DNA of 28,340 nucleotides from Oscillospiraceae bacterium (GTDB lineage Bacteria; Bacillota; Clostridia; Oscillospirales; UBA929), in contig JAIRML010000288.1 of NCBI GenBank assembly GCA_031258665.1, forward strand, positions 1 through 28,340, read 5' to 3'. Shown one piece after another: positions 14,731-28,084 of this stretch (its first letter is position 1; each line of letters opens with the position of its first letter). The notes below the pieces were generated by a model that searched no databases, was not told the DNA's origin, and saw only the letters and a list, made by a program, of their open reading frames with translations. The position numbers and the translations under genes were made by a program.

Positions 14731-14773
14731 AAAACGGCAGCAACATTGAGAAGAGAAAGGAAGTGCTTTGTTT

Positions 14774-17700
14774 ATGACTGCCAAAAAACGGACGATGGCT
14801 GTGCTTGTCGCGCTTGTCATGGCGTTGGGGGTGTTGCCGTCGCTGCCCGTCTCCGGTTTGGAGGCGGCTGCCGGGCCTCTCACAGAAAACACCAACACAC
14901 ACTGGCTGTTGTATTCTCCGAAGGCCCAGTCGTATGTACAGCATCTCACAAACGCCGGGTACGGCGCCAATCCCGGCGGGGTCGTCGCCACGCAGGACGA
15001 CCCGTCCGACCCGGCCGCCCAATGGACGCTCACCAACTACAACTCCGGCTCGATACCGGCCGCCGCCGGCATGTTCCGTATGGTGACCGCCGAAACCGCC
15101 AACGGGCACAACGCCGGCCTGGCGTTTAAAATGTTCGACGGCGCCGTGTATGTCGAAGGCGGGACAAACGGCGACGCCGACGGATTCTATCCGACGCCCG
15201 GACCCGCGGCCGACACTGTCATCATTCGCGGCGGGGGCAACGGCGGCATCGTGTACCCGATGAACGCCAACGCGCAGGGGTTGACCGTGAACGACGCGAA
15301 CATTCTCCGCCGCTCGGCCAGCAGCCCCGACGCCTTCATCCTCATCCCGCCGCAGGGGTACGTCCCGGTTCCGCCGGTTCCGTCGTCCCTCACCACACCG
15401 GACGGCAGTTCCGTTGCGGTCCAGTGGCCGAACCCCACCACATATTCGTCTAAACTGATTCTCCAGCGGGCCACCGACGAAGCGTTTTCAGACGCGGTCG
15501 CCGTGGATCTCAGCGGCGCGGCGCAGCAAGCCGGATATGTCACGCGGCTTGTCGATGCGTCGCCCAAGACGCATGGGACCACCTATTACTACAGGTTCAT
15601 CGCCGAGGATTACTGGCACAAAGGTGAAAACGGCGTAGTCGGCGAGAGCGCGGACATCACGATGCCCTCGACATTGCCGCCGACCATACAGACGACGGCG
15701 CTGACGTTTTTCAAATACCCCGCCCCGAAAGACCAGACCATCGGCTTTGACCCTGGCTTCGGCGCGCCCGAAGGCGCGACGGGCGTCGCGTCCGTCAGTT
15801 TCGACGGCGGAGCGAGTCTCGCCGTTGGCAGCGATTACACGGTCGATTGGGCCGGCAAGACGGTCACCGTCAAAGCGGCCGCGTTGAGCCGTTTGGCGCA
15901 GGGTGAACACGCGATCGACGTCAGGTTTGACCGGGAGGCCGGCGTGGCGTCGTTTGCCGTCAGCCTCCATGTGACGGACAAGATCACACACCCGTCTCAC
16001 TGGTTGATTTTTTCGCCGGACGCGGGCGCGCTTGTCGGTGTCAGGCAGAGCAATCCCTGGCAGGCGAACCCGCAGGGCTCGCTGTCGGCGACATATCTTT
16101 CGGCCGATCATGTGAACGCGCAGTGGTCCATCGACCGCAACGTGGCGGCCGCCTATACCGGCACGTACCCGTTCCGCATCCAATCTATGCTGACCACACC
16201 CACGCCGGCGCAGAGAAATATGTCTATGTACGCCGACTCTTGGGCCGCCTGGGAACAGGCCGGAACGATCAACCAGGCCACCGCCATGGCGATTGTCCCG
16301 CAGGGCGACGGTACTGTCAAGATTCACGGCGCGTGGAATAACCCGGGTTGGGCGGCGGTAAACGCCGACGGCACAACGCGCACTTTGGCGCAGGCCGCGT
16401 CGTCGAATTTCATTGTCATTCCGCCGGACAGTTACACGCCGGGCGACGCCGTCGGCGGGGCGGTCACCAGCGAAACCGCCGCGGACGTCACGTTCACGTG
16501 GCAGGCCCCGGCAGGGCCCGCGCCGAACTATTTTGCCGGGTTCCGCGTATTCAGACAGGACGGCGCGCAGTGGATTGAACTGACGGGCGACGGCAGCCTT
16601 GTCGTCAGAGAAGGCGGCGGCGTGTACTCGTTTACCGACGACTCGCCCGTGGACAATGTCAGCGTGTATAAAGTCGTGACGGACACCGCCAACCACGATT
16701 CGGACGGGATGCTGCTCACCGCCAACATCCCCGGGGGGGAACCCCCGAGTGTGGGCGCGTCCATCGCGACGTTCAACAAAAAGATCCCGGAGAGCGTGGT
16801 CATCGGCGTCAAGCTGGGCTTCGGCTCGCTGAGGGCCTCCCAGGTCGCGTCTCTGCTTCTCGACGGCATCCCTGTCGCCTATACGCTGAGCGGCGGCAAG
16901 TCCCCCGCCGTGACCCTTGACGCCGCCGCGCTCTCCGCTTTGGCGCTGACAAACGGCGACGCGCACAGCATCGCGGTTGCGTTCAACGACGCCGCGGAAA
17001 CGGTAAAAACCGTGACGCTCAACGTCATTGACGCCGAGAGCGCCTTGCCCGCCCCCGCGAACGTCAGAGTGACCGGCGACGGCAATGGCGCGGCGATCTC
17101 ATGGGATGCCGTGCCGAACGCAACCGGCTACAAAATCTACCGCGGGCTCGGCAAGTACGCGCCCGCCACATTCACCGCGCTCGTCGACGCCACCGACGAA
17201 ACGGGGTACAATCTCGGGGCCAGCTATGTGTGGGATTGGTACAAAGTAACCGCGTACAACGGCGCCGGCGATTATATCGATAGCCCGCCGTCGGACGTGG
17301 CCTCACTCGAGATCACGATGTTCCCAAACACCGAAATCTTCACCGAGAACGACGCGCAAAATACGGTGTCGACGGTCACCAATAACCATTCGAAGGCGTT
17401 CTTCTGGGGTGGGGCCATAGGCGGGAATTCCCCGTCCGGCGCGGACGCCAACAACCAATTCACAGACGACCGCATCGCGCTCCTGTTCAGGCCCGCCAAG
17501 GGTCACACGGCGGACTTCACGTACTTGGGGCTGTACCTCAACTTTTATATGCACATTGCCGGGCTTGGCAAAGTGCCGACCGACGTGCAGACGCAATCGG
17601 TTCAGGTATATTCTTGGGAGGGCGGCAGTTACAATGGCGGCGGCAACGTCACACAAAACTTCTGGCGCACGTTTGAAAATATGGAGACCACAGCCGGAGG

Positions 17701-19594
17701 CAATGTGTTCGCCGTCTCACAGGCGTCCCCTGTCCGCCGGGTTAAGACGGGCGCGCTTACGTTCCAGCTCGGCGGTTCGGCGAGCGGCGGGTTCCTTGCC
17801 GACAGTTACACAGGCTGGCAGTCCTATCAGGGGCAGCAGCAGTTTTATACCCGCAACAACGCGATAGCGGGCACGGACGGCCTGATCTGGAACGGTGTCA
17901 TGCAGGGCAACACGACCCAGGACGGGACCCAGTGGAACCAGTCCTACTCATGGATTGTCGTCGATGTGGAGCACACGCCGCTCATAGCGGAGAAGCCCTT
18001 CCTCTACTTTGACGTGGACGCGAACGGCGGCACCGGCGACTACCGAGTATTCGTACCCGGTTACCGCAAAGACGCTGTCGGCCTTTCGTGGGGCGACGGC
18101 AAGGCAAATGGGGGCATGGGCCCCGGCGAAAGCAGGCCGCTGAGCGATTTCTTTGTGGCGGACGAGTCCATGAGCGCCGACCAAATTATCGCCGGGATGC
18201 AAACGAAGAACGGCAACATCTTCTTCACCCCAGGCGTATACAAACTTGACAAAGAGATCCGCGTCACCGAGCCAAACGCCGTGCTGCTCGGGATCGGCGA
18301 GGCCTCGCTCCGCCCGCTGAGCGGGAATGTCTGCGTAAAAGTCGCGGATGTGCCCGGTGTGCGTGTCGCCGGACTTCTGTTCGACGCCGGCCCCGCCGCC
18401 GAGAATGACTTGGCCAACGCCAGCGAGGCGCTGCTTGTGGTCGGAGAAGGCGGCTTCACCGCCACGCCGGAGATGGAAGCGAGCCCGATTGTGCTTTCCG
18501 ACGCGATCGTGCGCGTTGGCGGGCTTCCGACGAGCGTACCCTATAAAGCGAAGAACGGCATTGTCATAAACGCCGATTACACGATTCTTGATCACGCCTG
18601 GATCTGGCGCGCCGACCACGGCGACCAGGTCGGATGGACGCTCAACCAGACAGACAACGGCCTTGTCGTCAACGGCGATCATGTGATTACATACGGGTTG
18701 CACTCCGAACACTTCCAGAAATATGACGTCCTCTGGAACGGCGATGACGGGCGCTGCTTCTATCTGCAAAATGAGCGCCCGTATGACACGCCGGAAACCG
18801 ACGACGTGCCCGACGCCTGGCGCGACACGTCGCTCGCGGACGCCAAGTATGATTACATCGGCCCGCTGGCCGACAGGCAGCAAGGGTACGCCGCTTTCCG
18901 CATCGGCGACGATGTGAGAAACTTCGAGGGCTGGGGTCTTGTGTCTTATGACGTGTTCGTACAGAACATGGGCGTCCAGTTCCGCACCATTTGGACAGGC
19001 TTCATAGCGCCGGAAAAGAACGCCAACATCAAGATCCATCAAGTGGGGACACTCTCAATCTCGCAGAACAGGGGTGAGATCGCCCACATCATCAATGGCG
19101 AGGGCCCGAGCAACGTTGGCCCCGTTGGGCCGACAAAATTTCTCGCGGCAAACGAGTTCCACCCCGACAATGAATACTGGTCGAAATGGCCGCTCTCCGC
19201 CGACGCGCTTGTGATCGGAGGTGCTGATGTCTATGACGATGCCGTTGGCCTGTATGTACTGAATTTGGGTGAGACTGAGCGGACGGCGAACGCCATTCTC
19301 GGCGGATACGAAACAGGCGGGAGGCTGACCGACGCAAACGTCGACCGGATAACCGTCAAGGGCTCCATCCTTGTTGGCGGCGGCGTCGGCGGCAATTCGG
19401 AGATTGTCGGCGGAGAGGCCCGCGGTCCGCAGCCGTTTATATCTAAAGATACCACCGTGGGTTCGCGGCTGTCCGGCGGGAGGTATGCCCTGCCCCGGCC
19501 GGGCGGCGAGAGTGCCGACGTCTGCGCCGCGTATGTCTGGAGCAGTGAAACCCATACGCCGCTTGCGGAGCGCCTCATCATTCCGCTGGATTAG
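14774..19594 (+). CDS. Secreted multimodular GH55 beta-1,3-glucanase (laminarinase)
   Basis: Signal peptide MTAKKRTMAVLVALVMALGVL (an alternative TTG start is at 14768). About 17320-19180 matches recalled bacterial GH55 motifs: NVTQNFWR, AVSQAS, SGGFLADS, QQQFYTRN, EKPFLY, FTPGVY, DHAWIWRADHG, EHFQKY, QNERPYD. The N-terminal half has duplicated accessory modules. Confidence 0.85.
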   Translation: MTAKKRTMAVLVALVMALGVLPSLPVSGLEAAAGPLTENTNTHWLLYSPKAQSYVQHLTNAGYGANPGGVVATQDDPSDPAAQWTLTNYNSGSIPAAAGMFRMVTAETANGHNAGLAFKMFDGAVYVEGGTNGDADGFYPTPGPAADTVIIRGGGNGGIVYPMNANAQGLTVNDANILRRSASSPDAFILIPPQGYVPVPPVPSSLTTPDGSSVAVQWPNPTTYSSKLILQRATDEAFSDAVAVDLSGAAQQAGYVTRLVDASPKTHGTTYYYRFIAEDYWHKGENGVVGESADITMPSTLPPTIQTTALTFFKYPAPKDQTIGFDPGFGAPEGATGVASVSFDGGASLAVGSDYTVDWAGKTVTVKAAALSRLAQGEHAIDVRFDREAGVASFAVSLHVTDKITHPSHWLIFSPDAGALVGVRQSNPWQANPQGSLSATYLSADHVNAQWSIDRNVAAAYTGTYPFRIQSMLTTPTPAQRNMSMYADSWAAWEQAGTINQATAMAIVPQGDGTVKIHGAWNNPGWAAVNADGTTRTLAQAASSNFIVIPPDSYTPGDAVGGAVTSETAADVTFTWQAPAGPAPNYFAGFRVFRQDGAQWIELTGDGSLVVREGGGVYSFTDDSPVDNVSVYKVVTDTANHDSDGMLLTANIPGGEPPSVGASIATFNKKIPESVVIGVKLGFGSLRASQVASLLLDGIPVAYTLSGGKSPAVTLDAAALSALALTNGDAHSIAVAFNDAAETVKTVTLNVIDAESALPAPANVRVTGDGNGAAISWDAVPNATGYKIYRGLGKYAPATFTALVDATDETGYNLGASYVWDWYKVTAYNGAGDYIDSPPSDVASLEITMFPNTEIFTENDAQNTVSTVTNNHSKAFFWGGAIGGNSPSGADANNQFTDDRIALLFRPAKGHTADFTYLGLYLNFYMHIAGLGKVPTDVQTQSVQVYSWEGGSYNGGGNVTQNFWRTFENMETTAGGNVFAVSQASPVRRVKTGALTFQLGGSASGGFLADSYTGWQSYQGQQQFYTRNNAIAGTDGLIWNGVMQGNTTQDGTQWNQSYSWIVVDVEHTPLIAEKPFLYFDVDANGGTGDYRVFVPGYRKDAVGLSWGDGKANGGMGPGESRPLSDFFVADESMSADQIIAGMQTKNGNIFFTPGVYKLDKEIRVTEPNAVLLGIGEASLRPLSGNVCVKVADVPGVRVAGLLFDAGPAAENDLANASEALLVVGEGGFTATPEMEASPIVLSDAIVRVGGLPTSVPYKAKNGIVINADYTILDHAWIWRADHGDQVGWTLNQTDNGLVVNGDHVITYGLHSEHFQKYDVLWNGDDGRCFYLQNERPYDTPETDDVPDAWRDTSLADAKYDYIGPLADRQQGYAAFRIGDDVRNFEGWGLVSYDVFVQNMGVQFRTIWTGFIAPEKNANIKIHQVGTLSISQNRGEIAHIINGEGPSNVGPVGPTKFLAANEFHPDNEYWSKWPLSADALVIGGADVYDDAVGLYVLNLGETERTANAILGGYETGGRLTDANVDRITVKGSILVGGGVGGNSEIVGGEARGPQPFISKDTTVGSRLSGGRYALPRPGGESADVCAAYVWSSETHTPLAERLIIPLD

Positions 19595-19595
19595 C

Positions 19596-19696
19596 TTTTT
19601 GCTGCCGCGAAGCGGCGGCAAAAAAGAAGAATTTGGGTTATGGGTTGCAGGCGCAACCCGCGTTGGTACCCTGTTGCCGCGAAGCGTCAACAAGGT
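19596..19696 (+). repeat. REP-like two-hairpin element, locus F (about 1.4 tandem units)
   Basis: TTTTTGCTGCCGC-GAA-GCGGCGGCAAAAA, GAAGAATTT GGGTTAT GGGTTGC-AGGC-GCAACCC GCGTTGGTACCC, then TGTTGCCGC-GAA-GCGTCAACA. Confidence 0.88.
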
Positions 19697-19726
19697 GTTA
19701 TCGATTTGTGGAAGGGGGCCTTGTGG

Positions 19727-21007
19727 ATGAAAAAGATTCTCGTTTCATTGTTGGCGGCCGTCATGGTTTTTGGAGCGACGGCGTGTTCGCCGAGTGGTCA
19801 GCAGACGAGCGGCGGCAAGACTGTGATTAAGGTATTCAGCAATCTACCGGACAGAACAACGGGGCAGGGGCTTGTGGAACAGAAGATTTTTGACCAGTAT
19901 ATGGCCGAAAATCAGGACATCGACATCCAGGTGGAGGCGTTGGACGACGAAGCGTACAAAATCAAGATGAAGGCATATGCCTCGGGGACGAATTTGCCTG
20001 ACCTCATCAGTGTTTGGGGGCAGCCGTCTTTTTTGGACGGATATATTGACGCCGGGCTGATCGCCGAGCTCGACCCAAATGACTATGACGGATATGGCTT
20101 TGTTGAGGGCTCGCTCGCCGGATTCTCCAAAAATGGCAAGCTGTACGGGCTGCCGAGAAACACGGATATGATCGCGTTCTATTACAACCAGAAACTGTTT
20201 GGCGACAACAACTGGTCGGTCCCGGCCACGTATGATGAACTGCTCGCGCTCGCCCCGAAGATCGCGGCTGCCGGGATATCGCCTGTTGCGATGGACGGCA
20301 ATGACAAGTGGCCTATCTCTATATTTATAACGGATTTGCTCGTCAAAATCGCGGGGACATCCTATCAGGCGGAGACCCTGAAGGCCATATCCAGCGGCGA
20401 CTTTTCCCATCCGATGTACGCCGAGGCGGCGCGTCTTCTCCAGGACGCGTTCGATGCCGGTCTGTTCCAACCCGGATTCGAGCAGCAGGATTATGGCACG
20501 GCACAGAACCTCTTTATCAATGGCCAGGCCGCCATGTTTTACATGGGCAGCTGGGAGATGAGCATGGCCAACAACCAGGAAATCCAACCGGAGGTCCGTG
20601 ACAATATTCGCGCGTTCACGATGCCTGTTGTGTCCGGCGGCGCCGGGGTTGCCACAGATATCGCGGCCTGGAACGGCGGCGGTCACTCTGTGGTGGCGAA
20701 AAGTCCCGTGAAAGACAAGGCCGTTGCGCTTCTGAATTACATCTACAAGCCGGAAAATTGGACGAAAATCGCCTGGGAGAACAATGTCTGCATGTCGGCG
20801 CAAGACTTCTCTCAGTACAAAACCGGCAGCGAAACCCCTGTCCAACTGCAGTTGATTGACATCTTTTCTCAGGCCACGTCCATCAGCGGCACGACAATCA
20901 ACGATCTCGGCTCGTCCGATTTTAAGACGAAGTTTGAGGATTTATCGCAGCAAATCTCCATCAAATCTATCACCCCAGAAGACGCGATAAGCGCTTTGGC
21001 GAATTGA
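19727..21007 (+). CDS. Carbohydrate ABC transporter substrate-binding lipoprotein
   Basis: Lipoprotein signal MKKILVSLLAAVMVFGATAC, then K.YGLP, YYNQKLF and F..GQAAMFYMGSW, typical of family-1 sugar-binding proteins. Confidence 0.92.
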   Translation: MKKILVSLLAAVMVFGATACSPSGQQTSGGKTVIKVFSNLPDRTTGQGLVEQKIFDQYMAENQDIDIQVEALDDEAYKIKMKAYASGTNLPDLISVWGQPSFLDGYIDAGLIAELDPNDYDGYGFVEGSLAGFSKNGKLYGLPRNTDMIAFYYNQKLFGDNNWSVPATYDELLALAPKIAAAGISPVAMDGNDKWPISIFITDLLVKIAGTSYQAETLKAISSGDFSHPMYAEAARLLQDAFDAGLFQPGFEQQDYGTAQNLFINGQAAMFYMGSWEMSMANNQEIQPEVRDNIRAFTMPVVSGGAGVATDIAAWNGGGHSVVAKSPVKDKAVALLNYIYKPENWTKIAWENNVCMSAQDFSQYKTGSETPVQLQLIDIFSQATSISGTTINDLGSSDFKTKFEDLSQQISIKSITPEDAISALAN

Positions 21008-21089: not shown

Positions 21090-21968
21090 GTGAGTGATGT
21101 GGAAAAGATGCTCAAAGATAAACGCGTCATAGCCATCCTGATCGCGCCGAGTTTGGCCGCTTTTATTTTTGCCGTACTCGCGCCGATTGTCCTCAGTTTT
21201 GTCTACAGTTTTACCAACAGCTCCGGCATCGGCCGGTTCACATTTGTGGGGTTTGAAAACTATTCCGCCCTCGCAAAGGACCGGGCCTTTTGGAACGCGT
21301 TGCTCAATTCGGCGCTGCTCGCGGCGGGCTTTGTTCTCATTCAGCACCCGATAGCGATTTTGACGGCGTGGCTGCTGGATCGGGTTGGCGGCCGCCTGGA
21401 AACGTTTTTCAAAACCGCCTACTTTATCCCAAACATCATCTCGTCAGCCGTCATTGCCATTTTGTGGAAATATATCTACAATACGAATTTCGGGCTTTTT
21501 AACGTGATCGCGCGATTTTTCGGCGGGGAGGGCGTCAATTGGCTTGGCACAGGGGTGGCCATCTGGTCGGTGCTTGTCGTACTCGTATGGCACGGATTTG
21601 GCTGGGGTATGCTGATCTATTACACGGGTATAAAGAACATCGACCCTGTTTTGTATGAGGCCGCCGCCATCGACGGGTGCGACGACAAAAAGATGTTCTT
21701 CGCGATCACCCTGCCGCTCATGCGCCCTGTGATCCAGGTGAACGTGACGCTCGCCCTCATTTCGGCTCTGAAACAGATGGAAACAGTGTATCTTTTGACA
21801 AAAGGCGGCCCCGGAAATGAGACACAGTTCGTGGCCACATATCTATATAAACAGGCCTTCCAGTCGGGCAATTACGGTTATGGCAATACGATCAGCGTCG
21901 TCTTTGTCGTGATCTGTCTGCTCACCACAGCCTTCCTCAACCGACTGTTTCGCGAAAGGGGGATTTGA
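21090..21968 (+). CDS. Carbohydrate ABC transporter permease (MalF-like)
   Basis: FVGFENY, multiple hydrophobic helices, EAA loop LYEAAAIDG and ITLPLM.P. The start could instead be 21099 or 21108. Confidence 0.93.
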   Translation: MSDVEKMLKDKRVIAILIAPSLAAFIFAVLAPIVLSFVYSFTNSSGIGRFTFVGFENYSALAKDRAFWNALLNSALLAAGFVLIQHPIAILTAWLLDRVGGRLETFFKTAYFIPNIISSAVIAILWKYIYNTNFGLFNVIARFFGGEGVNWLGTGVAIWSVLVVLVWHGFGWGMLIYYTGIKNIDPVLYEAAAIDGCDDKKMFFAITLPLMRPVIQVNVTLALISALKQMETVYLLTKGGPGNETQFVATYLYKQAFQSGNYGYGNTISVVFVVICLLTTAFLNRLFRERGI

Positions 21969-21971
21969 GGC

Positions 21972-22817
21972 GTGACAGACAAGATGAAAACGAGATTTCC
22001 CCTGGGCAGAGGCATCATTTTGGCCGTGCTCTTATTGTTCTCGGTGATCCAGCTTTTCCCGCTGGTATGGCTTATCGATTTCTCCCTCGCCAGCAATACA
22101 GAGTTCTTCACGTCGAAGCTGCTTATCATGCCCAAAGAAATCCAATGGGGGAATTATCCAAGGGCATTTATTGATGGGCATTTTTTGCTGTATTTAAAAA
22201 ACAGCCTGCTTGTCAATACGCTCGCGGTTGTCGTCGTGCTGGTCCTCTCAATCTGTTCGGCATACGCCGTCACAAGAATGCGCTGGAAGTTTTCACAAGC
22301 CGCCAAAAGCGTCATACTGTTGGGCATGATGATCCCGATTCACGCGACGCTTATCCCCAATTACATGATATACGACTTCCTCGGAGTCCGTGACACGCTG
22401 TGGTCGCTTCTTCTGCCTTACGTGGCCTTTTCGCTGCCGCAGGGGCTTTTTCTTGCGGCAAGTTATATGGAGTCCGTTTCGAAAGAAATAGAGGAAGCCG
22501 CCATCATCGACGGCTGCGGGACCTTTCGCCTTCTGGGCAGCATTATCACGCCGATGATGAAATCGTCGCTTATAACCGTCATGATCATGACTTACTTGAA
22601 CAACTGGAATGAGTTTATGATGGCCAGCACATACCTGAGCACATCAAAATGGAAGACACTCCCATTTTCCATCTTGGAATTCACGGGGCAGTACCGCGCG
22701 AATGTGGCGGTGCAATTTGCCGTTATGACGCTCACCGCAGCGCCGGCTATCATCATATATATTATATTGAGCAAACATATAACAAAGGGTGTGGCCATGG
22801 GTGCTGTAAAGGGATAA
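21972..22817 (+). CDS. Carbohydrate ABC transporter permease (MalG-like)
   Basis: LKNSL, AYAVTR, IPIHATLIP, EAA loop IEEAAIIDG, NNWNEF and terminal KG...GAVKG. Confidence 0.93.
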   Translation: MTDKMKTRFPLGRGIILAVLLLFSVIQLFPLVWLIDFSLASNTEFFTSKLLIMPKEIQWGNYPRAFIDGHFLLYLKNSLLVNTLAVVVVLVLSICSAYAVTRMRWKFSQAAKSVILLGMMIPIHATLIPNYMIYDFLGVRDTLWSLLLPYVAFSLPQGLFLAASYMESVSKEIEEAAIIDGCGTFRLLGSIITPMMKSSLITVMIMTYLNNWNEFMMASTYLSTSKWKTLPFSILEFTGQYRANVAVQFAVMTLTAAPAIIIYIILSKHITKGVAMGAVKG

Positions 22818-22876: not shown

Positions 22877-24754
22877 ATGTGTGGAATGAAGAGGAATGAG
22901 CATACGGGGATGAGGATAGGGCACAAGATAGTCCTGAGTATCTATGCCGTTCTTCTGCCGACGTTTCTTATCGTAGAAAGCATCATTTACTGGAACAGCC
23001 ATTCCGCCGTCATCAGTGAACGCACGCGGCAGTATAAGCGCGCCGTTTCGTCCATCGACGAAAACATTGGATACCTGGAGCAGGACATGTTGGAAATCGC
23101 GACCTATCTCTCCATCAATTATGAAATACAGAGGGTTCTGATGTCCGACCCTGAAGAGACCGCGGAAGATCCCCTCTTTTGGTCAAACAAAACGCCGGTC
23201 AATGTCATAAAAGACATATTGGCCGTAAAAACGAAGATTGCGACGGTCGCGCTTTATCCAGAAAACGGGCTCAGGCCTTTTACCATAAGCCGCGACAGGA
23301 GTGTTTTCGCCCCCAATATCGCCAATCTTCGGGGGCTGGACATTTATAAGAGAGCCGCAGCAGGGAACGGCGTCATCGTTTGGAGCCGGGTAAACAGCGA
23401 TGATATTGGGCTTTTTATCAACAACCGTTCAGACAAAATCGTCGCCTGCAGTGAACTGTATGATTTGTCTAAGAGACGCAAACTGGGCTTTCTGTCACTC
23501 GGCATTGATTTGGAGGGATACGAAAGCATATGCGCGAACGCCATGCCTCAGAACAACGAGGCTGTCCTTATCTTCGACTCCGACGGCAGCGAGATGTTCC
23601 GATACGGCGACGTGCCGGACGAAGCCGCCGCGTGGCTCAGGGAGCGTGATCCAAACGTCACGGATGAGCCGTTGGAATACGAGAAATACTACATATTTTC
23701 TCAGCGCCGTGAGACATCGGGTCAGACGATCTTTTATCTGTCCAGAAAAAGCGACTGGGACGCGTGGACAAGAAGCGGGTTCCTGATCACATGCCTGTCG
23801 GCACTTGCTCTTTTGGGAGGGGTATGGCCGCTGTCCTCGTTCGCCTCACGGATCGTTACCCGGCCGATTATGCTGCTCTACGCCTCCATGAATAAGTTTA
23901 AGAGCGGCGATTTCAACCAGCAGGTACATGTCGAGGGAAATGATGAAATTTCTGAGCTGGCCGAAACATTTAATACCATGGTGAGCGATATCCGCGAGCA
24001 AATCGACAAGAATTATGTGTTGGCTTTGAGAGAGAAGCAGAGCGAACTGAATGCGCTCCAAGCGCAGATCAATCCGCATTTCCTCTACAACGCGCTGGAC
24101 GCGCTTTACTGGCAAGCGACGGAATGCTGTCAAGAGCGGCTTGCGGACGATATATTGGCGATGTCGGAATTGTTCCGTATGCTGCTCTCCAACGGCAACA
24201 GCGAGGTTACGGTGGAACAGGAACTGAAAATTGTGCGCCACTATCTGCAAATTCAAAAATTACGTTTTGACAAAAAAATGAACTACAGCATTGAGGTGGA
24301 GAACGAACTGCTTCCATACCAGATCCCAAAGCTGATTATCCAGCCATTTGTAGAGAACGCCATTGTCCATGGGATGGAAAAGAATGGAACGTGGGGCCGC
24401 ATTCGAATCACCGGCCGCATAGACGGCGACTTCCTCTCGTTCACCGTCGAAGACAGCGGGATCGGCATGTCAAATGAGAGAATTCAGGAGATCTTAAAGG
24501 CAAAGGACGACGACCGGTACGCCTACCAAAGGGTGGGACATTACGCTGTCAGAAATGTGAAGGAGCGCATGAATCTGCGCTACGGCGCTGCGGCGGAACT
24601 CACCATCGAGAGCGAGCTGAATATCGGCACAAAAGTTCAGATCAAATTGCCACTGATAGTGCCTTGTTGCCGCGAAGCGGCAGCAAAAAACAAGAATTTG
24701 GGTTGTGGGTTGCAGGGGCAGCCCACGTGGGAACGAAATGAGGCGGGGCTATGA
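22877..24754 (+). CDS. YesM-like sensor histidine kinase (HAMP + His_kinase + HATPase)
   Basis: Two TM segments, HAMP (DEISELAETFNTM), LQAQINPHFLYNAL, QPFVENAIVHG, VEDSGIGM and GTKVQIKLP. Start uncertain (22877, 22886 or 22910). Confidence 0.93.
   Translation: MCGMKRNEHTGMRIGHKIVLSIYAVLLPTFLIVESIIYWNSHSAVISERTRQYKRAVSSIDENIGYLEQDMLEIATYLSINYEIQRVLMSDPEETAEDPLFWSNKTPVNVIKDILAVKTKIATVALYPENGLRPFTISRDRSVFAPNIANLRGLDIYKRAAAGNGVIVWSRVNSDDIGLFINNRSDKIVACSELYDLSKRRKLGFLSLGIDLEGYESICANAMPQNNEAVLIFDSDGSEMFRYGDVPDEAAAWLRERDPNVTDEPLEYEKYYIFSQRRETSGQTIFYLSRKSDWDAWTRSGFLITCLSALALLGGVWPLSSFASRIVTRPIMLLYASMNKFKSGDFNQQVHVEGNDEISELAETFNTMVSDIREQIDKNYVLALREKQSELNALQAQINPHFLYNALDALYWQATECCQERLADDILAMSELFRMLLSNGNSEVTVEQELKIVRHYLQIQKLRFDKKMNYSIEVENELLPYQIPKLIIQPFVENAIVHGMEKNGTWGRIRITGRIDGDFLSFTVEDSGIGMSNERIQEILKAKDDDRYAYQRVGHYAVRNVKERMNLRYGAAAELTIESELNIGTKVQIKLPLIVPCCREAAAKNKNLGCGLQGQPTWERNEAGL
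24659..24728 (+). repeat. REP-like two-hairpin element, locus G (inside the kinase reading frame)
   Basis: GTGCC TTGTTGCCGC-GAA-GCGGCAGCAA AAAACAAGAATTT GGGTTGT GGGTTGC-AGGG-GCAGCCC AC, upstream of the kinase stop at 24752-24754. Confidence 0.9.
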
Positions 24755-25491
24755 GCGATTCGAAAATCAGTCTGCTGATTGCCGAGGACGAGGAACGGGT
24801 GCGGGGAAGTCTGAAGTCCTTCATCAGCAAAAACGCCGATTATGTCTCCGAGATTTACTGCGCCGCCAACGGGCAGGAAGCCATCGACATCATTATTCAG
24901 TACAACCCCGATGTCATGCTGTTGGACATCAAAATGCCGATTAAGAGTGGAATCGATGTCATGAAAGAGGCATCCGCCATTGGCATACTGCCCAAAACCA
25001 TTGTTATATCAAGTTACGACAAATTTGAATACGCCCAGCTGGCGCTGCGCTACGGCGCGATGGAGTATTTGCTGAAACCCACAGCTACATCCGACATTCT
25101 TCGCGCGATTTGGAGTGTTTATAAAAGGGAACCGCCTCGCGGAAATGAGCAGAAAAAATCGGCCGTGTTGAACAGTTTTATCAGCAACGCTCTCGACTAT
25201 ATGAACCGCCATTATCCCGATGAATTGACGCTGACGATTGTCGCGGAACATATTGGGATAACACCAAATTATCTCTCGACCTTGTTTAAACGCACCCTCG
25301 GATGCGGATTCATAGATTGCCTCAACCAAATCCGGGTGGAACGCGCTTGTGACTATTTTGTGGACAACAAGATGAAAACCTATGAGGTGGCGTATAAGGT
25401 CGGTTATCGCGATGAAAAATATTTTTCTACCGTCTTCAAAAAAACAAAAGGTATGAGCCCATCCGAGTACCGCAAAAATCATAAGGGGTGA
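24751..25491 (+). CDS. YesN-like response regulator (receiver + AraC HTH)
   Basis: IAEDE, phosphoacceptor LLDIKMP..SG, YLLKP, LSTLFK..LG..F, YEVAYKVGY.D.KYFS..FKK..GMSPSEYR. ATGA overlap with the kinase. Confidence 0.94.
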   Translation: MSDSKISLLIAEDEERVRGSLKSFISKNADYVSEIYCAANGQEAIDIIIQYNPDVMLLDIKMPIKSGIDVMKEASAIGILPKTIVISSYDKFEYAQLALRYGAMEYLLKPTATSDILRAIWSVYKREPPRGNEQKKSAVLNSFISNALDYMNRHYPDELTLTIVAEHIGITPNYLSTLFKRTLGCGFIDCLNQIRVERACDYFVDNKMKTYEVAYKVGYRDEKYFSTVFKKTKGMSPSEYRKNHKG

Positions 25492-25497
25492 CAATCT

Positions 25498-26859
25498 ATG
25501 GAGAACATAACAAAGTTTGACCCGAGGGCGCTGCGTCTGTTTACAACCGCTTTTGGCGGCGGCCAAAAAACTGAAATATCATCCGTCCATACTTTTTCCG
25601 ACGACAACGGCGTTGAGAACGATGTCGTCAACATTCACCCCGAAATTGTGTATCAGACGTTCGAGGGGTTTGGAGGGGCCTTTACAGACGCGGCGGGTTA
25701 CGTTTTTTCACTGATGCCGAAAAAGGAACGCAGGCGTCTGATCGAGGCGTATTTCGGTGAGGGCGGCGCGGGGTATACGGCGGGGCGGATTCATCTGGAC
25801 AGCTGCGATTTTTCGGTTGGGCATTACGAGGCCGTGGAACCGAACGACGAAACACTCGCCACATTCAACCTCAGTAGGGCCGTAAAATACATCAGGCCGC
25901 TTCTGGATGCGGCACAAAGCGCCTACGGGAAGCAAATACCGCTCATGGCGTCTCTGTGGAGCCCGCCCGCCTTTATGAAATCAAACGGCGCGCGCAACGG
26001 CGGCGGCCAACTGCTCAAAAAGTACTATCCGCTGTTTGCGGAATATATATGCCGATACATCGCGGAACTTAAAAAAATCGACTTTCACATAGTCCGGCTC
26101 GCCGCCCAAAACGAGCCGAAGGCTGTTCAAATATGGGATTCGTGCGTATATACGGCGGAAGAAGAACGGGATTTTCTCGTCAACTATCTTCGTCCCGCTC
26201 TTGATGAGAACGGCTGCGACGATATAAAGCTGCTTTTTTGGGATCATAACAAAGAGCGATTGTACGAACGCGCGGCTGCGGTGGCGGGTGAGCGGGTATC
26301 TGGCGTTTTTGAGGGCATCGCATTTCACTGGTACAGCGGGGATCATTTCGAGGCTGTCGACCTTGTCCGCAGCCGTTTTCCCCATCTTAAACTGGTGCAA
26401 TCTGAGGCGAGTGTGGAGTTTCTCAAGTTTGACAGGAACGATATCGGCGCGGCGGCCAAATATGCCCACGAACTCATAGGGAACATCAACGCCGGTATGC
26501 ACGCCTTTTATGACTGGAACATTGTTCTCGACCAGGAGGGCGGCCCGAATCACGCCAAAAACTTCTGCGATGCGCCGTTCTTGTTCGACACCTGTACGTC
26601 CAAATTGGAGGAGCGCCCCGTGTACTCATATATTTCCCATTTCTCCCGATATATCAGGCCAGGCGCTCTCAGGGTCGCGTTCTCACGCTACACCGCCGAT
26701 CTGGACGTGACGGCACTGAAAAATCCGGACGGTGCGGTCATATCCGTCATTCTCAACCGCGGCACTGACGAAAAAAAAGTTGTCCTGCGCATCGGCGATA
26801 AAGCCACGGACATTCGCGTACCCGGCGTTTCAATATCCACCGCGGCCATTGATTTTTGA
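25498..26859 (+). CDS. Glycoside hydrolase family 30 (glucosylceramidase-like), no signal peptide
   Basis: GFGGAFTDAA, SCDFS, SLWSPPAFMK, acid/base QNEP, WDHNK, FHWY, nucleophile-position SEAS, DWNIVL and HFSRYIRPGA. Confidence 0.9.
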   Translation: MENITKFDPRALRLFTTAFGGGQKTEISSVHTFSDDNGVENDVVNIHPEIVYQTFEGFGGAFTDAAGYVFSLMPKKERRRLIEAYFGEGGAGYTAGRIHLDSCDFSVGHYEAVEPNDETLATFNLSRAVKYIRPLLDAAQSAYGKQIPLMASLWSPPAFMKSNGARNGGGQLLKKYYPLFAEYICRYIAELKKIDFHIVRLAAQNEPKAVQIWDSCVYTAEEERDFLVNYLRPALDENGCDDIKLLFWDHNKERLYERAAAVAGERVSGVFEGIAFHWYSGDHFEAVDLVRSRFPHLKLVQSEASVEFLKFDRNDIGAAAKYAHELIGNINAGMHAFYDWNIVLDQEGGPNHAKNFCDAPFLFDTCTSKLEERPVYSYISHFSRYIRPGALRVAFSRYTADLDVTALKNPDGAVISVILNRGTDEKKVVLRIGDKATDIRVPGVSISTAAIDF

Positions 26860-26965: not shown

Positions 26966-28084
26966 ATGGCGGGGATTACTTTCAAAAATGTGACCAAAAG
27001 TTACAGAAACCATGTGATGGTTGTGCCGGGCTTGAATTTTGAGATCAAAGACAAGGAATTTGTTGTGCTCGTGGGCCCTTCCGGTTGCGGCAAATCGACC
27101 ACGCTCCGTATGATCGCAGGCTTGGAAGCGGTGACGTCCGGCGAGATCCTCATAGGAGAAAAAGTGGTGAACAATGTGGCGCCGAAAGACAGGGACATTG
27201 CGATGGTCTTTCAGAACTACGCGCTTTACCCCCATATGACGATCTATAAAAACATGGCCTTCGCTTTGAAAATACGCAAAATTCCGAAAGATATAATCGA
27301 CAAAAAGGTGCGCGAAACCGCTGCTATACTCGACATCTCTGACTATTTGGACAGAAAACCGAAAGAACTGTCGGGTGGGCAGCGCCAACGCGTGGCGCTG
27401 GGGCGGGCCATGGTGCGCGATCCCGCCGTATTTCTGCTTGACGAGCCGCTTTCCAATTTGGACGCGAAACTGCGAACCGAGATGCGCGGCCAGATTATTG
27501 AGCTTCAACGCAAACTGGAGGCGACGTTCGTTTATGTCACGCATGATCAGACAGAAGCCATGACAATGGCCGATCGTATCATCGTAATGAAAGGTGGTGA
27601 GATCCAACAGAGCGATACGCCGCAGGTGTTGTACGATGCCCCGGATAACAGATTTGTGGCGGGGTTTATCGGTTCGCCGGAAATGAATTTTTGGGATGCG
27701 TCTGTTGCTGTTGAAGGTGACGATGTATTTCTGGAATTCTGCGGAGTGAGTATACAGATGCCGAGAAATCGCGCCGCCGCATTGAAGAGTTATTCGGGAA
27801 AATCTGTCATGATTGGCATAAGACCAGAAGATATTCATTGGTGCGATAGCAATGAAAAAGGTAGTGGTATTTTTTCATCAAATGTTGCTATTGTCGAGAT
27901 GATGGGTTCCGAATTGTTCCTCTATCTCGACTTCAATGGCAACCGTGTTCGCGCGCGGGTCCCGGCGAGATTTGGGATTCGTTCAGGAGATAAAATCAAT
28001 CTGTCTTTCGATATCAATAAGTTTCATATATTCGATGAACAAACGGAAAAAACGATTGAGCAAGGGCGGCCCGGGGGCGCATAA
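26966..28084 (+). CDS. Carbohydrate ABC transporter ATP-binding protein (MalK/MsmK/UgpC-like)
   Basis: AAGGAG RBS. Walker A GPSGCGKS, VFQNYALYPHM, LSGGQRQRVALGRA, Walker B LLDEPLSNLDAKLR and YVTHDQTEAMT. Confidence 0.96.
   Translation: MAGITFKNVTKSYRNHVMVVPGLNFEIKDKEFVVLVGPSGCGKSTTLRMIAGLEAVTSGEILIGEKVVNNVAPKDRDIAMVFQNYALYPHMTIYKNMAFALKIRKIPKDIIDKKVRETAAILDISDYLDRKPKELSGGQRQRVALGRAMVRDPAVFLLDEPLSNLDAKLRTEMRGQIIELQRKLEATFVYVTHDQTEAMTMADRIIVMKGGEIQQSDTPQVLYDAPDNRFVAGFIGSPEMNFWDASVAVEGDDVFLEFCGVSIQMPRNRAAALKSYSGKSVMIGIRPEDIHWCDSNEKGSGIFSSNVAIVEMMGSELFLYLDFNGNRVRARVPARFGIRSGDKINLSFDINKFHIFDEQTEKTIEQGRPGGA

Follow-up and report, generated by a model that had tools for sequence, protein, structure and literature searches.

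A secreted GH55 enzyme of an Oscillospiraceae bacterium with a duplicated front end and very divergent, probably fascin-like beta-trefoils

We analyzed a 28,340-nucleotide stretch of DNA from an Oscillospiraceae bacterium (contig JAIRML010000288.1 of assembly GCA_031258665.1), referred to hereafter as the window. Its forward strand carries a gene, at 14774..19594, for a predicted secreted, multi-modular exo-beta-1,3-glucanase of glycoside hydrolase family 55 (GH55), 1606 aa in length. About 800 residues precede the catalytic domain; they comprise a three-module unit, present twice, and then a single additional FN3 module. Each unit opens with a domain of about 150 residues, here called domain A (copies A1 and A2), which very probably belongs to the bacterial fascin-like beta-trefoils as a strongly diverged member, as judged from profile comparisons through less diverged homologues. 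Taken as a whole, the results favor a secreted GH55 enzyme that heads a beta-glucan uptake locus and whose front-end trefoils probably tether it to glucan, a reading that we consider reasonably likely.

The open reading frame (ORF), found by ORF calling, is open from a TTG at 14768. The ATG at 14774 is the most likely start because it is preceded, at a distance of about 10 nt, by a GGAAG ribosome-binding site and because the orthologue P0002, which is 80% identical, begins at the same Met. The entire layout, signal peptide (SP)-[A-FN3-X2]x2-FN3-GH55-C-terminal domain, is encoded in this single ORF, and its parts are as follows.

14774..19594, + strand: gene for the predicted secreted multi-modular GH55 exo-beta-1,3-glucanase
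14774..14872, + strand: putative Sec-type signal peptide with a KKR n-region, a hydrophobic core and an LEA/AAG c-region, recognized by eye in the translation
14897..15367, + strand: domain A1, aa 44-200, probable divergent fascin-like beta-trefoil; paralogue of A2; hhalign
15368..15676, + strand: FN3-like module a, aa 201-303; Pfam PhoD_N E 0.0014, Pur_ac_phosph_N E 0.037
15677..15982, + strand: CBM_X2 Ig-like module a (X2a), aa 304-405; PF03442, E 8.6e-8, 32.6 bits (cut-off 28.9)
15998..16441, + strand: domain A2, aa 411-558, probable divergent fascin-like beta-trefoil; hhalign, and BLASTP to domain A'2 of the relative P0005 described below
16442..16732, + strand: FN3-like module b, aa 559-655; PDB FN3con E 0.0084
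16733..17023, + strand: CBM_X2 Ig-like module b (X2b), aa 656-752; 43% identity to X2a
17024..17305, + strand: FN3 module c, aa 753-846, adjoining the catalytic domain; Pfam fn3 E 0.08
17306..19132, + strand: GH55 catalytic region of two beta-helix domains, aa 847-1455 (PDB match to 4pew over aa 894-1451)
19133..19591, + strand: C-terminal domain, aa 1456-1608 (153 aa), without a family match

A sequence-only reading of the gene had proposed the architecture SP-[trefoil-like + FN3 + X2]x2-FN3-GH55, which was borne out by the Pfam, PDB and BLASTP comparisons. The motifs it quoted are present at the positions it gave, both in the front end (HWLLYSP at 14900, FILIPPQGY at 15335-15361, HWLIFSP at 15998, FIVIPPDSY at 16409-16435 and PAPANVRV at 17048) and in the catalytic region (TQNF at 17651, VSQA at 17714, EHF at 18707 and QNE at 18767-18775).

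By sequence comparison the two three-module units are true paralogues. Residues 35-412 aligned with residues 413-770 by BLASTP at 26% identity over 310 aa (E 2e-9), and A1 aligned with A2 by hhalign with a probability of 94.6% (E 7e-8; score 50, compared to 12.5 ± 1.8 for column shuffles). The similarity of the two N-terminal segments, noted in the sequence-only reading, is thus far above chance. X2a and X2b are 43% identical (alignment A4). At the DNA level a 29-nt remnant, with a spacing of 1062 nt, is the only trace of the duplication that survives, and the duplication must therefore be old.

The profile of domain A gave 0 matches at E<=0.001 among 1.84 billion representative proteins, word-indexed searches returned only the 80% orthologue or nothing, a scan of genome contigs recovered no more than two near relatives, and a pattern scan of metagenomes found nothing. 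Among 400 genomes of the order the domain occurred in only two further genomes, both of the same genus. Its placement came instead through homologues found by way of the neighboring catalytic domain. A word-indexed search with the catalytic region returned 234 long GH55 relatives at E<=1e-20. The relatives P0005, P0006 and P0007, whose catalytic domains are 41-44% identical to ours, have the layout SP-[A'1-FN3-X2]-[A'2-FN3]-FN3-GH55, which is collinear with our front end (E 1e-22 to 4e-24). Their A' copies are less diverged than domain A. A'2 approached RicinB_lectin_2 (E 6.3e-5 and 3.2e-4, just below threshold) and matched domain B, a trefoil of a second large enzyme of the genus (see below), by BLASTP at E 5e-12; A'2 of P0005 matched our A2 over the full domain at E 2e-4. 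A first direct link between A and B (E 0.008 per genome, 400 genomes) lay within chance expectation, and the A-B relationship is credible only because of the A' bridge.

For hhalign comparisons, a profile was built from 11 Pfam-annotated fascin-like domains of GH55 and GH16 enzymes. The probability, E value and distance from shuffled profiles in standard deviations (SD) were as follows.

B: 98.5%, E 1.7e-15, 50.7 SD above shuffles
A'2: 96.8%, E 2.2e-10, 20.5 SD above shuffles
A'1: 97.7%, E 1.6e-12, 25.0 SD above shuffles
A2 (ours): 76%, E 2.2e-5, 13.1 SD above shuffles
A1 (ours): 18%, E 1.3e-3, 8.8 SD above shuffles

A wider reference profile combined Pfam-annotated Fascin, DUF7910 and FRG1 domains with A' and B and contained no A sequence. 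Against this reference the pooled A1+A2 profile reached 92.8% (E 3.9e-7) over 134 columns, which is the whole domain, and A2 alone reached 93.9% (E 1.7e-7) over 126 columns. Column shuffles scored 11.3 ± 2.0, with probabilities of at most 1.4%; a reversed alignment gave 0.2%, an unrelated all-beta CBM6 profile gave 2.8%, and a ricin-type profile, used as positive control, gave 96%. A global-alignment column-shuffle test was dropped, as it yielded z scores of 3.9-5.2 for trefoils but also 2.7-3.6 for the unrelated CBM6; thereafter only local and maximum-accuracy (MAC) scores with controls were used. When the pooled family profile (A5, comprising A, A' and B) was compared to the PDB, it matched the Symfoil designs at E 1.5e-7 and below and the CBM92 structures 7ZOH and 7ZOI at E 4.3e-4 and 5.8e-4, respectively. 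Protein-language-model neighbors of both A copies were exclusively beta-trefoil families, with weak scores (0.84 and 0.89) that we treat as a lead only.

The guess of the sequence-only reading that domain A is beta-trefoil-like was therefore right. Its description of the domain as unassigned and as a candidate new beta-glucan-binding module was too strong, since the group to which A is matched is known on glucanases. The known carbohydrate-binding module (CBM) that domain A resembles, at moderate to good confidence, is of the CBM92 type and not CBM13. A ricin-type assignment was tried and rejected. The A profile scored no better than shuffles against ricin-type domains in hmmsearch, and hhalign caught only the G..V...QxW stretch (P 0.076). 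In direct hhalign comparison with a ricin-type profile, 2 of 80 shuffles reached the score (z 1.6-2.9), which is not significant. Neither PF00652 nor PF14200 matched domain A, in which a single AQW motif stands against three QxW repeats; a search of the genome with PF14200 matched another contig and not the GH55 gene. Domain A shares with the CBM13/ricin-type modules of beta-1,3-glucanases, such as the RICIN-like domain of the GH64 enzyme GluY (PMC8394091), the probable fold class, the role of an appended trefoil in a beta-1,3-glucanase and, in the first subdomain, a QxW-like AQW, but it differs in having one of the three QxW motifs and no match to either Pfam family.

CBM92 modules bind beta-1,6/1,3-glucans and are appended to glucanases; a WExF motif ends each of their three subdomains, and its Trp is required for binding (PMC11039641). 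The structures 7ZOH and 7ZOI are CpCBM92B and CpCBM92A, respectively, of Chitinophaga pinensis (PMC11039641). Domain A is like these bacterial fascin-like domains in being a module of about 140-150 aa on a beta-glucan-active enzyme. It departs from them at the binding motifs, with at most QW in the alpha subdomain and W-E in the beta subdomain (A2 only), as follows.

Alpha subdomain: AQWT / AQWS (AQW[TS][LI])
Beta subdomain: W-E (AAWEQ) and then a 9-residue insert in A2; Y-V-E (AVYVE) in A1
Gamma subdomain: Phe only (F[IL][IV]I)

In its nearest relatives, the A', B and GH55-appended fascin-like domains, the beta subdomain still shows one clear WEx[FL]. Domain A does not fit the definition of the CBM92 family. 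It may nevertheless have kept a CBM92-type function through one or two altered sites, or none of it, and glucan binding by domain A is plausible from these comparisons. It is also possible, though doubtful, that domain A and the A' domains of P0005-P0007 form a separate, unclassified clade of beta-trefoil CBMs, in which the trivalent WExF mechanism would have been replaced by a site at the conserved AQW Trp and at W495 of A2. The ligand of such a clade might differ, for example a branched beta-1,3/1,6-glucan, a chitin-glucan complex or a glycan specific to the termite gut, and the clade would then merit a new CBM family or subfamily.

The catalytic region matched SacteLam55A of Streptomyces sp. 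SirexAA-E (4PEW, 4TZ1) in phmmer at E 3.9e-92 over aa 894-1451. For comparison of residues the chain index was mapped to the published SacteLam55A numbering with an offset of 44, and the roles of GH55 residues were taken from PMC10637969. The general acid Glu502 and Tyr505 are kept as E1336 and Y1339. The water-activating and proton-relay residues are also kept, with Thr149 as T962, Gln174 as Q985, Ser198 as the Ser of SASGG (1004-1008) and Glu480 as E1314. In subsite -1 and the aromatic block, Phe152 corresponds to F965 (TQNF, 962-965), Trp444, Trp446 and Asp449 lie in WIWRAD (1278-1283), and His481 is H1315. The catalytic motifs, which the sequence-only reading had thought intact, are so at every catalytic, relay, subsite -1 and aromatic-block position compared with 4pew. 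Judged by this alignment the protein belongs to GH55, a family of inverting beta-1,3-glucanases, and has a complete catalytic set, and conservation of the catalytic and dead-end subsite -1 residues fits an exo-acting enzyme. The Pfam label common to all relatives, PF27525, is presumably the GH55 domain. The likeness to SacteLam55A extends over the approximately 560 residues of the catalytic region; SacteLam55A has nothing comparable to the front end of about 800 residues, and our protein is further extended by about 150 residues at its C-terminus.

These features suggest how the protein might work. An exo-beta-1,3-glucanase would be secreted through the Sec pathway by an Oscillospiraceae bacterium of the termite gut. 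Its two trefoils would most likely tether the enzyme to insoluble beta-1,3/1,6-glucan, such as that of the fungal cell wall, possibly via one aromatic site left in each domain. The FN3 and X2 modules would serve as spacers, giving the catalytic domain reach to chain ends, and the GH55 domain would trim glucan from the non-reducing end. Glucose and gentiobiose-type products could then be imported by the adjacent ATP-binding cassette (ABC) system, with the neighboring two-component system in control, and a cytoplasmic GH30 enzyme would finish the imported products.

Several results weigh against this reading. In scans of Pfam, NCBIfam and PDB sequences domain A on its own matched no entry, and neither A1 nor A2 matched Fascin (PF06268), DUF7910 (PF25490) or FRG1 (PF06229) even at E<=10. 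Alone, A1 reached an hhalign probability of only 12-18% (11.8% against the wider reference). AlphaFold2 models of domain A were unusable, with predicted local distance difference test (pLDDT) values of 33.8 for a 4-row alignment and 32.2 for an 11-row A+B alignment, and hhalign comparison of thirds of the domain gave nothing significant for an internal three-fold repeat. In profile alignments none of the three strict WExF motifs is kept. Domain A is not rich in aromatics, as the sequence-only reading had supposed: W+Y+F make up 9.6% and 10.1% of the two copies, compared to 9.7-12.8% in most of the other modules. In the catalytic region, the plus-subsite aromatics Tyr194 and Trp196 of SacteLam55A are not conserved. 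The failure of every family model to detect domain A and the low pLDDT values are what would be expected if it were a new fold or family unrelated to beta-trefoils whose profile similarity reflects convergent beta-strand patterns, and the unspecific behavior of the global shuffle test, even with CBM6, points the same way. The local and MAC comparisons were specific, however, since the pooled profile stood far above the CBM6, shuffled and reversed controls (92.8% against at most 2.8%), and the A' homologues, which occupy the equivalent place in the same layout, scored 97-98% to fascin-like domains. We regard a new fold as highly improbable.

A nonbinding domain A deserves more weight, although we judge it unlikely. 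In that case A would be a degenerate trefoil and the 800-residue front end a passive spacer or solubility scaffold. The canonical WExF sites are mostly lost, the aromatic content is ordinary, and P0004, at 64% identity, has just SP-FN3-GH55, so that the front end is dispensable for this type of enzyme. On the other hand, both copies of A show good conservation among orthologues (A1 at 87%). All of A1, A2 and A'2 still have the AQW Trp, and A2 also has the W-E of its beta subdomain. Conservation among orthologues together with the kept Trp argues for selection beyond length. Related trefoils on glucanases, moreover, bind glucans (PMC11039641). Domain A, X2 or both might instead retain the enzyme on the surface of the producing cell or on another protein and so replace an SLH, sortase or dockerin anchor. 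Pfam and NCBIfam scans found none of these three signals anywhere in the protein, and for the X2 modules of clostridial scaffoldins a contact with the cell surface has been proposed; both points speak, if only indirectly, for such retention. The GH55 relative P0013, however, has SLH as well as fascin-like trefoils, so the trefoil is no substitute for an anchor there, and surface retention seems to us quite improbable.

The matches of all three FN3-like modules to known families were themselves below threshold (fn3 E 0.08; PhoD_N E 0.0014; FN3con E 0.007-0.008), and the FN3 profile (A3) matched FN3 structures in the PDB with a best E of 0.0074. The homologous modules score clearly with fn3, at E 8.7e-10 in P0005 and 4e-16 in P0006 (aa 215-310), and our modules align to those of P0005 at 35-41% identity (E 1e-10 to 3e-12). 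Specifically, module b is 41% identical to the first FN3 of P0005 (E 3e-12) and module c is 35% identical to its third (E 1e-10); module a aligns to the second at 32% (E 2e-6). The X2 profile (A4) matched PDB entry 4yzp at E 6e-4. X2b by itself had no Pfam match and was assigned to CBM_X2 because it is 43% identical to X2a. For the C-terminal domain of 153 aa Pfam likewise gave no match. It is less conserved between orthologues than the protein as a whole (58% and 80% identity to P0002, respectively) and its similarity to the P0004 C-terminus is weak (25% identity, E 7e-4).

The order of modules also differs between our protein (window 14897-17305) and P0005 (aa 39-758). Our FN3b corresponds to FN3-1 of P0005 (41%), our X2a to its single X2 and our FN3a to its FN3-2, and A1 and A2 resemble each other more than either A' copy. 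The reshuffled matches and the mutual closeness of A1 and A2 suggest that, once the lineages had separated, modules were shuffled or gene conversion took place.

Many of the 234 GH55 relatives have Pfam-recognized trefoils and FN3 repeats. Fascin, DUF7910 or FRG1 trefoils occur, for example, in P0013, P0042, P0060, P0076, P0110 and P0118, and RicinB trefoils in P0017, P0052, P0096 and P0099; in P0076, three trefoil regions alternate with FN3 modules on the N-terminal side of GH55. The multi-modular GH55 enzymes of Clostridia and Paenibacillus (such as P0076, P0013, P0042 and P0060, and P0005-P0007) thus share with ours a design of signal peptide, alternating trefoil and FN3 (with X2 in P0005-P0007) and GH55. 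Their trefoils are recognizable with Pfam or near threshold (RicinB_lectin_2), while ours are far more diverged, and compared to P0005-P0007 our protein has a second X2 and another module order. The closest GH55 protein outside the genus, the 939-aa ENA metagenome protein P0004 (64% identity), consists only of SP-FN3-GH55-C-terminal domain. The front end is therefore an accessory and not a requirement. Since P0004 keeps the FN3 next to GH55, FN3c goes together with GH55, and the two three-module units are additions to it.

Repeated trefoil and FN3 modules ahead of GH55 are common in public sequences, and CBM92-type trefoils on glucanases are known from the literature. The novelty lies in how far this trefoil clade has diverged, in its loss of the canonical motifs, and in the second X2 and the order reshuffled relative to P0005. 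For annotation, an orphan-looking module of 150 residues could be placed in a known fold family through homologues found via the neighboring catalytic domain. For carbohydrate enzymology, a very divergent fascin-like (CBM92-type) branch without WExF bears on how much of the motif binding needs. For termite-gut biology, the results point to an Oscillospiraceae genus with large secreted enzymes directed at fungal-type beta-1,3/1,6-glucan (GH55; GH3...GH16). No general principle is altered by them.

Another giant secreted enzyme, about 1750-1790 aa long, is encoded in the same genus (G000 contig C30, loci L043 and L045; G119:C129, loci L009, L042 and L047; G199:C63). It has an N-terminal GH3, two units each of an Ig-like module and a fascin-like trefoil of about 150 aa (domain B), and a Listeria-Bacteroides repeat. 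Its C-terminus appears GH16-like by eye (WNDEFDG, where the locus ends), with no Pfam match. The copies of B share 53-58% identity, and a search of 300 genomes of the order detected B in no other genus. Domain B scored E 0.015 with DUF7910 and E 0.22 with Fascin.

Downstream of the GH55 gene, Pfam matches identified the following genes in the window.

19640-21007, + strand: solute-binding protein
21090-21968, + strand: permease 1
21972-22817, + strand: permease 2
22877-24754, + strand: sensor kinase
24751-25491, + strand: AraC-type response regulator
25498-26859, + strand: GH30
end at 28084, start uncertain, + strand: MsmK-type ATPase

The longest ORF for the ABC ATPase runs from a GTG at 26732, which gives an overlap of 128 nt with the GH30 gene. 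Because the ABC_tran match of this ORF does not begin before aa 100, translation probably starts about 80 codons further downstream. The GH30 protein is closest to structures of the SrfJ/glucosylceramidase type (2wnw, E 7e-93) and matched GH30 xylanases weakly. Its structural neighbors make it look more like a beta-glucosidase that acts on imported oligosaccharides than like an endo-beta-1,6-glucanase.

The genome to which the window belongs (G000) is 64% complete. It has at least six CBM6 matches (contigs C230, C209, C210, C77, C198 and C61), several of them in ORFs of 900-1800 aa, and one RicinB_lectin_2 match, on C223. The organism evidently degrades polysaccharides and has many large modular enzymes. 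Genes closely related to the GH55 gene occur in Oscillospiraceae metagenome-assembled genomes whose isolate names, Ct408_bin61 and Nm470_bin132, we take to denote termite-gut bins. Upstream of the GH55 gene lie housekeeping genes, and G+C content is uneven over the window (1-28340), at 0.61-0.74 in these upstream genes. It is 0.56-0.65 across the GH55 gene and falls to 0.48-0.55 beyond about 20 kb, where the transporter, regulator and GH30 genes are located.

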